Below are positions 17,400-20,002 of a DNA stretch of 25,956 nucleotides, in pieces. A program made the translations under genes and the position numbers. Under the pieces are notes generated by a model that was not told the DNA's origin, ran no database searches, and worked only from the letters and a program-made list of their open reading frames with translations. Source of the stretch: Escherichia coli (GTDB lineage Bacteria > Pseudomonadota > Gammaproteobacteria > Enterobacterales > Enterobacteriaceae); assembly GCF_003334785.1 (NCBI RefSeq), contig NZ_QOWV01000029.1; one strand, written 5' to 3'. Positions within the stretch are counted from its first letter, which is position 1; each line of letters starts with the position of its first letter.

Positions 17400-19085
17400 T
17401 GAATTAATCAGCCTGACGGCGGATCAGCGACGAAGCGACACGCATCAACTTCACCCTGAGTGTCCGTCCTGGCCTTTGACATCGTGGCCACCCCTGAAGT
17501 CCGCTTTGTGCCAGGTATAGTCATTCACACCCTGAGAGTTACACTTTTAAGTGATTCAGGGTATGCGCTTATTGGTTACGAATATTGTGCCAGAATCATG
17601 TAATTTGATGATTGTCGCTTTGCTTTCGAGCCAGTAAGTGCTCAACGTTCGCTAACGAATACTCAGGGCATGCAGAAAAACTGCTGACTATATTTCTTTC
17701 GAAGAGCGTGGAATGCATACCAATCCCCGATAAAAAGGAGTTGGTGATGACTGCGAAAGATCAGTTTGCTGCTTATGTTGGTTTGGACTGGGCAGATAAA
17801 AAACACGATGTCTGCGTTCAGTTTAAAAACGGTGATCGCATATTCCATGTGATTGAACATACGCCTGAGGCACTTGATATCTGGCTCAATGAGTTACACC
17901 AGAGGGTGAAAGGCAGGATTGCTATTGCCGTTGAGCTGAAGAAAGGCCCGGTGGTGTATGCACTCCAGAAGTACCCATTTGTCACTGTTTTTCCAGTACA
18001 CGCGTTGTCACTGGCCCGCTACCGACAGGCTTTCTGGCCCAGTGGTGCGAAGGTTGATCCGCAGGATGCTGAGCTGGCATTAGACCTGATGCTACGTTAT
18101 CCCCACAAGATAAAAGCCATTGAAGCCGACAATCCGGATATCCGATTACTCCAGCAATTAGTTGAGCAGCGCCGACTGCTGGTCGAAGACAAGCGTCGCT
18201 TTGTTAATCGGCTCATCAATACGCTTAAGCAGTATTACCCCCAGCCCCTGGAATGGTTCTCCCATCGGGACAGCTCACTGTTCTGCGAGCTAATCATTCG
18301 CTGGCCGAGTCTGCAACAACTCAAACGGGCTCGCAGCGATACTGTACGTCATTTTATGAATGCTAAAGGTGGTCCTGCTGTTGCATATACCGAACAGCGG
18401 GTTGCAAGTATTGCCAGCGCTATTCCCCTGACCACAGATAAAACTGTCATCGAGGCAAATGCCTTGATAGCAACAGCACTTGCATCCCAAATCAAACTGA
18501 CAGGCGACCTAATCAGAACCTACGATGAACGTATTGAATCCTTATTCGATACGCTTCCGGATGCAGAACTGTTCAAATCACTACCTGGAATGGGGCCGTG
18601 TATGGGCCCACGGATGCTTGCAGCACTGGGTGATAACCGCAACCGCTTCAACAGCGCCGAAGAAATTCAAAACTACGCTGGCATCGCACCAGTAACCGAG
18701 CGAAGTGGTCAAAAATCGTGGGTACACTGGCGTTGGCAGTGTGCCAAGTTCGTCCGGCAGACATTCGTGGAATGGACTGCGAAGACGGTTAACTCATCGT
18801 ACTGGGCCAGACTTTATTACCAGGGCCAGCGAGAAAAAGGGAAATCTCATCAGTCAGCGATCCGGGCTCTGGCATTTAAATGGATAAGGATCATTTACCG
18901 CTGCTGGAAGACCCGAACCCGGTACGACGAAGCGAAATATTTGCTGGCACTGGAAGCGCGAAAGTCGCCCTTACTGAAGCCATAAAAAGCTTGTCGAATG
19001 TCTCAGGGCGTGAAGCGGACTTTGCAAAATGGGGGTTATTTCAATCAAAACGTAACGTCACAACCAGCCGACGCTCTCTCGCCAT
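17400..19085 (+). mobile_element. IS110-family element; boundaries approximate
   Basis: Contains the DEDD-type transposase; IS110-family elements lack obvious terminal inverted repeats so ends cannot be set from sequence alone. Confidence 0.4.
17747..18985 (+). CDS. IS110-family transposase/recombinase (412 aa)
   Basis: N-terminal AYVGLDWADKKHDVCV and overall similarity to IS110/IS1111 transposases from memory; ATG 17747 with AAAGGAG RBS. Confidence 0.9.
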   Translation: MTAKDQFAAYVGLDWADKKHDVCVQFKNGDRIFHVIEHTPEALDIWLNELHQRVKGRIAIAVELKKGPVVYALQKYPFVTVFPVHALSLARYRQAFWPSGAKVDPQDAELALDLMLRYPHKIKAIEADNPDIRLLQQLVEQRRLLVEDKRRFVNRLINTLKQYYPQPLEWFSHRDSSLFCELIIRWPSLQQLKRARSDTVRHFMNAKGGPAVAYTEQRVASIASAIPLTTDKTVIEANALIATALASQIKLTGDLIRTYDERIESLFDTLPDAELFKSLPGMGPCMGPRMLAALGDNRNRFNSAEEIQNYAGIAPVTERSGQKSWVHWRWQCAKFVRQTFVEWTAKTVNSSYWARLYYQGQREKGKSHQSAIRALAFKWIRIIYRCWKTRTRYDEAKYLLALEARKSPLLKP

Positions 19086-20002
19086 TTATAATTAGTAACT
19101 TTATCATTTTCGCTTATTTTTTTAGATATAGAGCGCGGCTCTCTTCCTAGATACTCAGATATTTCTGTCGGGGACAAATCAAAATCGACAAGCATGACTC
19201 TAAGTTTTTCCATTTCCTTTAAAGTCCAAGGCTTGCCATAATTTTCATAAAGAGATACCTTATGCTCCCTGATAGTTCGCTTTCTCTGAGCTTCACTTTC
19301 CCTCTGAAAAATCTCGCTTTTAAATTGTGAACGGAACTCTTTACAGAAGTTGTTATCAGTTTTTTTGTTATATAGATTGCTAAAAATAAGCTGGGATGCC
19401 GGGTCTAAATCAGGTGTGTTAATAATGAAAACTTTGACCTTTTCCATATAGGGATATTCAATTTTACCCAATATGCTTAATTGCTTTATATTAAAAAAAC
19501 CTCTCAAATCAAAAGATTTAATGAGCTTTGATTGGATTACACTTTCAATCCTGCTTGCATTTGAATAACAGTACTTTGCCATTGGAAGGGCCCATACTAC
19601 CAGTTGAGGAATATATTTTTCTAATGCAATGCTCTGCCAATCAGTATCAAAGGTTTGGCTTTTTGCTAGCATGTTTTTCGGCAAATCAGAATACATTGTG
19701 GTAGATGCCCATATCTTATAATCCTTCGCCAAGGCTTGATAGTATTTTGTGTGGTTATGAATTTTATAAGCTGACATGAAGCGATAAACGTCTTCGTCGT
19801 GACCAGCGTCGTAAATTGTTCGATTTCCTCTAAGATAACCTTCGTAATGTTCGGTTATCCTTCTACCTACATTACAACTTACCCCAACGTAAACCACACG
19901 ACTGAAAAGTCCTTTATGGACAATAAGATAAACTCCGCTACAGCCAGATTTCCTGGCCTCTGATAGAGAACCTAAAAATCTCCATTCCATAATTAAATCC
20001 AT
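19058..20002 (-). CDS. GIY-YIG nuclease-domain protein with possible C-terminal HTH, 314 aa, AT-rich
   Basis: N-terminal GVYLIVHKGLFSRVVYVGVSCNVGRRITEH fits the GIY-(N10)-YVG-R motif; C-terminal LSPTEISEYLGREPRSISKKI is HTH-like. Last 8 codons sit in higher-GC sequence next to the IS110 element. Confidence 0.65.
   Translation of the reverse strand: MDLIMEWRFLGSLSEARKSGCSGVYLIVHKGLFSRVVYVGVSCNVGRRITEHYEGYLRGNRTIYDAGHDEDVYRFMSAYKIHNHTKYYQALAKDYKIWASTTMYSDLPKNMLAKSQTFDTDWQSIALEKYIPQLVVWALPMAKYCYSNASRIESVIQSKLIKSFDLRGFFNIKQLSILGKIEYPYMEKVKVFIINTPDLDPASQLIFSNLYNKKTDNNFCKEFRSQFKSEIFQRESEAQRKRTIREHKVSLYENYGKPWTLKEMEKLRVMLVDFDLSPTEISEYLGREPRSISKKISENDKVTNYKWRESVGWL

Follow-up and report, generated by a model that had tools for sequence, protein, structure and literature searches.

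What might a solitary, AT-rich gene wedged between an insertion sequence (IS) and plasmid backbone do for the DNA that carries it? The question is raised by a 25,956-nucleotide stretch of Escherichia coli DNA (contig NZ_QOWV01000029.1 of assembly GCF_003334785.1; hereafter the window), in which the open reading frame (ORF) of a hypothetical protein lies between an IS110-family transposase gene on one side and two plasmid backbone ORFs rich in guanine and cytosine (GC) on the other. The initial annotation of the window had proposed an AT-rich single-gene island encoding a GIY-YIG protein, a candidate stand-alone defence or selfish nuclease on a plasmid, and the base composition bears out its AT-rich character: the GC content of the ORF is 0.366, compared with 0.491 for the whole window, 0.489 for the IS110-family element and 0.613 for the backbone ORFs (20443-21290). 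On balance, we lean towards a DNA endonuclease of two domains that works without a partner and, as a single gene, protects its host from phages or other invading DNA. We favour this reading because the catalytic residues are intact, a partner gene is lacking and the spread of the gene is patchy and horizontal, and because known defence systems adjoin it in several independent lineages, ThsB replaces it in one island slot and it has the status of an integron cassette in Vibrio.

The N-terminal region of the protein displays the features by which the GIY-YIG superfamily is recognized. In an AlphaFold model with a predicted local distance difference test (pLDDT) score of 91.7, it adopts the alpha/beta GIY-YIG fold, where the tyrosine motifs G23-V24-Y25 and Y38-V39-G40 are located on two strands (residues 23-30 and 34-42) and are accompanied by the arginine, histidine, glutamate and asparagine of the superfamily (R48, H52, E153 and N171). 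Loss of catalytic residues was looked for on an alignment of 30 homologs that extends down to 38% identity, and Y25, Y38, G40, R48, H52, E153 and N171 are invariant throughout; in the wider family, the catalytic Tyr, Tyr, Arg, His and Glu are kept at 90% or above. Profile alignment with hhalign pairs R48 with Arg27 and H52 with His31 of I-TevI (residues 22-62 against I-TevI 3-41), and E153 and N171 are assigned from conservation and the fold match, rather than from a residue-level superposition. The PF01541 profile matches residues 22-62 of the window protein alone weakly (E = 0.004), and better in relatives, 9 of 28 of which are matched at E ≤ 0.001 (best 1.8e-7). The nuclease domain also accommodates approximately 70 additional residues, placed after the Arg/His helix and before the Glu strand. 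The protein is a real and probably active GIY-YIG nuclease, distinguished by this unusual 70-residue insertion and by a Myb-like helix-turn-helix (HTH) tail. Most homologs begin with MEW or MNW at the position of M5, and we therefore consider M5 (ATG at 19990), four residues into the listed ORF, the probable true start.

A 34-residue helical stretch (218-251) connects the nuclease domain to the C-terminal HTH, which consists of three helices resembling Myb, SANT and GcrA domains. The linker is the least conserved segment of the protein (mean column conservation 0.45, compared with 0.84 for the GIY-YIG core), and the HTH has invariant residues at W259, E265, L267, R268, F274, R287 and I296. The conserved arginine of the GIY-YIG motif, the HTH-like C-terminus and the layout of a free-standing homing endonuclease, all noted in the initial annotation, are thus recovered in the alignment and the model. 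Indeed, a nuclease followed by a long linker and an HTH is the layout of I-TevI, raising the alternative of a selfish, free-standing homing-type endonuclease, which would cut gene-less genomes at a specific site, whereupon repair would copy the gene in. The weak match of the protein to TIGR01453, the model for group I intron endonucleases, points the same way, but it scores 17 bits against a cut-off of 56.05 and is restricted to the core motif (residues 22-64). In addition, a tblastn search of 50,697 phage records returns no homolog, and none of the homologs is located within an intron.

The family to which the protein belongs is small and nameless, and no close relative of known structure or function was found in the databases searched. 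A word-indexed search of 5.8 billion proteins yields 72 clusters of approximately 310 residues each, from Enterobacterales, Vibrionales, Aeromonas, Pseudoalteromonas, Thalassotalea and Undibacterium; the closest cluster by itself has more than 1,400 members. An exhaustive hidden Markov model (HMM) search of 1.84 billion representatives finds no more than 139 relatives, mostly of 200-230 residues, that comprise the nuclease module only. Foldseek finds no match below E = 1 in the PDB, a PDB sequence search with the family profile returns spurious antibody chains alone (E > 0.1), and the matches in AFDB50 are confined to uncharacterised 'GIY-YIG domain-containing' proteins. Matches to NCBIfam, PHROGs and PADLOC remain at the level of the motif; likewise, no Pfam family is matched beyond the GIY-YIG core, and neither Pfam nor NCBIfam has a dedicated model. 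We found no description of the family in the literature when looking for it by accession, domain and context. Many of the Vibrio-type homologs (clusters P0036-P0063) are present only on contigs of 1-2 kb, as fits assemblies broken at the attC repeats that flank a cassette.

Within E. coli, the gene is present at ≥99% identity in 289 of 5426 complete genomes (about 5%), where 289 of the 291 copies occupy chromosomal places and 2 reside on plasmids. The window itself is 100% identical to the E. coli plasmid pWP7-S17-ESBL-04_2 (NZ_AP022179), such that the plasmid location given in the initial annotation is true of this copy but atypical of the gene, since E. coli copies are mainly chromosomal. 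Further carriers include Salmonella, Klebsiella, Serratia, Yersinia, Vibrio and Aeromonas. In one E. coli genome (NZ_CM128586.1, 4580811-4583046; hit H33), the gene is split by IS903B and annotated as two GIY-YIG fragments.

The surroundings of the gene favour a role in defence. In the three E. coli chromosomal loci that were inspected, the gene is part of the cargo of a CP4-like integrative island; at two of these loci, a type I restriction-modification (RM) system with an embedded DarTG is immediately upstream and the GTPase gene of the island follows the nuclease gene. The same slot holds ThsB in E. coli Ceylon31, and two uncharacterised genes in another genome. In Salmonella, PD-T4-3 is encoded 416 bp downstream of a copy of the gene (PADLOC E = 2e-140), and a Salmonella island with a homolog also carries Thoeris within 10 kb. 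AbiH follows the Aeromonas homolog after 88 bp, at a locus downstream of guaA, and on a Serratia plasmid a Ppl-like gene is located 67 bp downstream of the homolog, with pifA (PifA) nearby. A BrxR and JetD/MksE-like operon ends 40 bp upstream of the Thalassotalea homolog, and in a Brenneria integrative and conjugative element (ICE) Shango SngA/SngB lie 6 kb away. A further copy is located where the block of tail genes ends in a Mu-like prophage. As a qualitative tally, at least 7 of about 15 distinct contexts have a known defence system next to the gene or no more than 10 kb away.

We note that Salmonella and related contigs contain two unrelated GIY-YIG nucleases side by side, the homolog and PD-T4-3/CMoRE; at locus L018 (11362-12135; also L019 and L021), the PD-T4-3/CMoRE gene is followed by a resolvase and the copy of the window gene is 99% identical. 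At the Thalassotalea locus (L016, 3242-9961), the gene is preceded by a WYL regulator of the BrxR type and by an operon of four genes (269, 991, 468 and 180 residues); the JetD-like and MksE-like signals in this operon are weak, and it may represent a divergent Wadjet-like system.

No neighbouring gene is conserved in any context examined, and the lack of a methyltransferase partner stated in the initial annotation holds both for the window, where the record annotates none, and for all homolog loci examined. The nearest methyltransferase is a type I hsdM that belongs to a complete and separate hsdRMS system. Among the loci examined, the homologs are likewise not found in introns or RM cassettes.

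The Vibrio homologs reveal how the gene can travel. In V. parahaemolyticus, a homolog with 61% identity forms a complete integron cassette (L027, 9596-10676; DBHWEU010000028.1), which opens with GTTAGGC and has GCCTAAC and an attC of approximately 120 nt after the stop codon. It is part of an array of 16 attC-like repeats with small genes on the same strand, and the identical protein occurs at differing array positions in other strains (L028-L030). The enterobacterial copies are without attC.

Several observations weigh against a role in defence. In Kosakonia, Serratia NFX21 and Leclercia, the homolog stands alone between housekeeping genes with no defence neighbour, and the Photobacterium plasmid and Undibacterium contexts contain no recognised defence system. 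The neighbourhood survey comprises about 15 hand-picked contexts and does not amount to a statistical score of defence association. PADLOC v2 does not include the family, and none of its models matches beyond a core motif of 30-45 residues. Moreover, the recognition helix of the HTH is near-invariant among the homologs, which fits poorly with a rapidly diversifying target recognition. A conserved HTH of this kind, and the tolerance of the host for the gene without an immunity partner, would suit a DNA repair factor of the housekeeping type, or a regulator that binds DNA and has lost catalysis in its nuclease domain. However, every catalytic residue is invariant across a long divergence, the gene is patchy, horizontally transferred and AT-rich, and it is encountered as an integron cassette and in defence islands, which makes a repair or regulatory role very improbable.

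As a single-gene defence, the protein would be anchored on DNA by its Myb/GcrA-like HTH, and the long helical linker would position the GIY-YIG domain for cutting at a distance, as in I-TevI. Because the gene is carried without a methyltransferase or immunity gene, self DNA must be spared in another way. The nuclease could recognize a feature found in foreign DNA only, such as base modification, a sequence specific to phages or a structure arising in replication, as do type IV enzymes, CMoRE and Odn; alternatively, its activity could be latent until infection. The gene spreads as a module of promoter and ORF, in Vibrio as an integron cassette and in Enterobacteriaceae as a palindrome-bounded unit that occupies cargo slots in plasmids, ICEs, CP4-like islands and the ends of prophages. 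That a GIY-YIG domain with a small DNA-reading or sensor domain can suffice for defence has been shown for CMoRE/PD-T4-3 (PMC12923530), for the winged-helix (wH) GIY-YIG type IV enzymes (PMC11037411) and for Odn (PMC8263062).

The enterobacterial module has sharply defined ends. It is approximately 99% identical in at least five unrelated contexts, including E. coli chromosomal islands, Salmonella, the Mu-like prophage end and the window plasmid. Homology to nine compared loci (L018-L023 and L032-L034) begins at 20194-20201 (at L020, with the end of the contig) and ends at 19014 in all of them, and these breaks are located inside two palindromes, here termed A type (3') and B type (5'). Both palindromes are 24 bp with a 9-6-9 layout, the central six nucleotides being GAGCGA upstream and TGGCAC downstream. 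Thus, the single-gene island of the initial annotation does contain one gene, but the mobile unit is this 1182-bp palindrome-bounded module, and the IS110-family element, which sits in the A-type palindrome, is not part of it.

The same palindromes bound other cargo in E. coli CP4-like islands, namely ThsB, a two-gene module of O157 and an MFS gene; the B-type element also precedes the 459-aa gene of O157 and the MFS gene of NCTC9104. Among the 5426 E. coli genomes, the 3' palindrome is found in 2202 and the 5' type in 402, with 1-4 copies each. Since they enclose other cargo and are commoner than the gene, the palindromes are generic module boundaries that are not made by the nuclease, and they may serve as sites of cassette exchange.

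These boundaries bear on the homing alternative. A discrete 1.2-kb module that is 99% identical across unrelated contexts, and lone insertions between core genes in three genera, are what a homing endonuclease might leave behind. Nevertheless, the family has at least 12 flanking contexts, with insertion sites that differ in nearly every genus, the opposite of homing, and in Vibrio it moves as an integron cassette. The palindromes flank cargo without the nuclease (ThsB, the 459-aa gene and the MFS gene) and are present in 2202 E. coli genomes, compared with 289 for the gene, indicating that mobility is not supplied by the nuclease protein. Membership of the homing endonucleases is not supported by the HMM score, the habitat or the constancy of the insertion site, and we consider this alternative unlikely. 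Of the two roles left side by side in the initial annotation, the neighbourhoods favour defence, and the selfish one does not agree with the lack of phage or intron copies, the many insertion sites or the TIGR01453 score.

A nuclease in the service of its carrier elements might instead destroy competing plasmids or islands, or act during transfer or recombination by processing palindromic boundaries or structured DNA. GIY-YIG enzymes such as Slx1 and UvrC work on DNA structures, the gene is found throughout on mobile elements or beside them (plasmids, integron, ICE, prophage end and CP4-like islands), and palindromes with homology breaks inside them are present at both ends of the module. Set against this, the gene is much rarer than the palindromes, no mobile element accompanies the solitary chromosomal copies and the HTH shows no link to the palindromes, leaving such a service role improbable.

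If the gene does act in single-gene defence, it would represent a compact system of less than 1.2 kb including its promoter that needs no partner and has been missed by current catalogues. Its reader domain is not among the known modification sensors, and the target of this domain could reveal a new form of discrimination between self and foreign DNA and could yield a new DNA-cutting tool. Palindrome-bounded modules may account for an exchange of individual defence genes among islands, prophages and plasmids that involves no integron; they are a more unusual by-product than the nuclease family, which is one more single-protein nuclease candidate. A broader reading, which we regard as rather doubtful, would unite a new immunity family with an undescribed, non-integron cassette exchange in Enterobacteriaceae, where a single GIY-YIG protein would be guided by its Myb/GcrA-like reader, the palindromes could act as paired, mutually incompatible recombination sites in CP4-like islands and the 3' palindrome would also be the landing site of the IS110-family element.

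Features of the nuclease gene, its module and the surrounding insertion; positions refer to the window unless a compared locus (L) is named
Feature	Position	Strand	Remarks
ORF, 314 aa, ATG start	19058..20002	-	stop codon 19058-19060; RefSeq WP_087896604.1 'hypothetical protein'
Extended GIY-YIG nuclease module, about aa 1-215	19358..20002	-	GVY (Y25), VYVG (Y38), R48, H52, E153, N171
Long helical linker, about aa 216-252	19247..19357	-	DSSP helices 218-226 and 228-251
C-terminal three-helix Myb/SANT/GcrA-like HTH, about aa 253-303	19094..19246	-	
Transferable module, 1182 bp	19014..20195	-	193 bp upstream + ORF + 44 bp downstream
5' boundary palindrome, B type	20171..20194	-	GTCCGCT-TTGAGCGAGG-AACGGAC
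3' boundary palindrome, A type, left half	19014..19025	-	intact elsewhere: GTCCGCT-CTTGGCACAG-AGCGGAC; here broken by the IS110-family element
A-type palindrome, right half, far side of the IS	17498..17514	-	reverse complement CTGGCACAAAGCGGACT; same arrangement around the pKP91 IS copy
IS110-family IS	17515..19013	+	ends good to about ±2 nt; transposase coding sequence 17747-18985, named IS110 family transposase by RefSeq
Complete 3012-bp insertion, absent from a related IncK2/Z plasmid backbone	17276..20287	.	L002 5086 = window 17275; L002 5088 = window 20288
Palindrome positions elsewhere	L032 9006-9029, 10180-10203; L034 9005-9028, 10179-10202, 10221-10244; L036 3578-3601		

The IS110-family element lies inside the 24-nt palindrome GTCCGCT-CTTGGCAC..-AGCGGAC, which has the appearance of its preferred target, since the IS copy in the Klebsiella plasmid pKP91 has the same half-sites on either side (L031 4150-4180 and 5680-5690). 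In other plasmids, the match to the IS continues 7-16 nt beyond its ends. The non-coding part of the element is upstream of the transposase (244 nt), with about 30 nt downstream, a layout that fits the IS110 subgroup rather than IS1111. The window copy has no attC site (R'' RYYYAAC ... R' GTTRRRY), having in its place the 24-nt palindrome that is cut by the IS; an integron cassette whose attC had been hit by an element of the IS1111-attC type was considered for this copy and rejected, as no R''/R' boxes follow the stop codon.

Compared with the related backbone, the 3012-bp insertion is made up of the IS and the nuclease module together with two outer pieces, one of 239 bp (17276-17514) beside the IS and one of 92 bp (20196-20287) beside the module. 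For the non-coding 239-bp piece, left of the IS, pKP91 has a diverged equivalent in the corresponding place (L031 3937-4176), and both open with TTTTTCGGATC; the start of the window piece is the junction to the plasmid backbone. Short hairpins are present at the insertion point, GATCCG...CGGATC in the related plasmid (L002 5060-5110) and, in the window, GTCCGG...CCGGAC at the right-hand junction (regions 17255-17300 and 20255-20300), and therefore the 3012-bp insertion, too, took place at a palindromic spot. Downstream of the homolog in the Salmonella island (L024 10950-11015), a near-perfect palindrome has 23 paired positions per arm (z = -6.4 relative to shuffles) and contains the motif GCAA..TGGCACAGA, which is also present in the E. 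coli 3' palindrome, although in the Salmonella structure it is located in the stem and not in the loop.

The 193 bp upstream of the ORF within the module contain no partner ORF of at least 40 aa, the lower limit of the ORF listing; two ORFs in this region extend over the module boundary into sequence that is not conserved. Rfam models at E ≤ 1 give nothing over 17200-20500 except a chance microRNA match, and a promoter and terminator scan finds sites no more numerous than in shuffled sequence. A sigma-54 promoter at the TGGCAC loop is ruled out on reading the sequence, as there is no TTGC element at the correct spacing.

Among known GIY-YIG systems, the type II restriction enzymes Eco29kI and Hpy188I differ by their adjacent cognate methyltransferase, which is absent from the window and from the homolog loci. 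PDC-S14 and Uzume UzuA are the sole PADLOC models with any match (E = 0.006 and 0.01), but the matches span 30-45 residues of the GIY-YIG core at differing profile positions and leave the remainder unaligned. I-TevI and the Seg enzymes share the order of catalytic domain, long linker and C-terminal HTH, and the Y-10-R-4-H spacing of I-TevI is identical. By contrast, Pfam detects neither NUMOD/IENR1 nor zinc-finger linker modules in the window protein, and its family is located outside phages and introns, at diverse insertion sites rather than a single homing site.

The wH-GIY-YIG proteins Ahi29725I and Apa233I, which are type IV enzymes dependent on N6-methyladenine (m6A) (PMC11037411), and Odn of ICP1, a chimeric nuclease (PMC8263062), similarly combine a nuclease with a DNA-reading domain and have no methyltransferase. 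However, the domain order of the wH-GIY-YIG proteins is reversed, the reading domain in these systems is a winged helix or a RepA-derived DNA-binding fold rather than a Myb/GcrA-like one, and no sequence similarity to the window protein is detected. An enzyme of the m6A type that depended on Dam sites would, in addition, be toxic in Dam+ E. coli, where the gene is common.

The comparison with PD-T4-3/CMoRE, a type IV restriction enzyme that consists of a single GIY-YIG protein and is known from E. coli and Klebsiella (PMC12923530), is one of shared circumstances and distinct sequences. The PD-T4-3 HMM does not match the window protein at E ≤ 1, and CMoRE is not returned by PDB sequence or fold searches with it. 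The window protein has the motif GVYLI, without the third tyrosine of CMoRE (GIYxY), and is longer (314 compared with about 256 residues), with the 70-residue insertion in its nuclease domain; it ends in a three-helix Myb-like HTH in which no resemblance to the modification-sensing domain of CMoRE is detected. Nonetheless, both proteins are encoded without a methyltransferase and reside in enterobacterial mobile islands, and in Salmonella their genes are adjacent.

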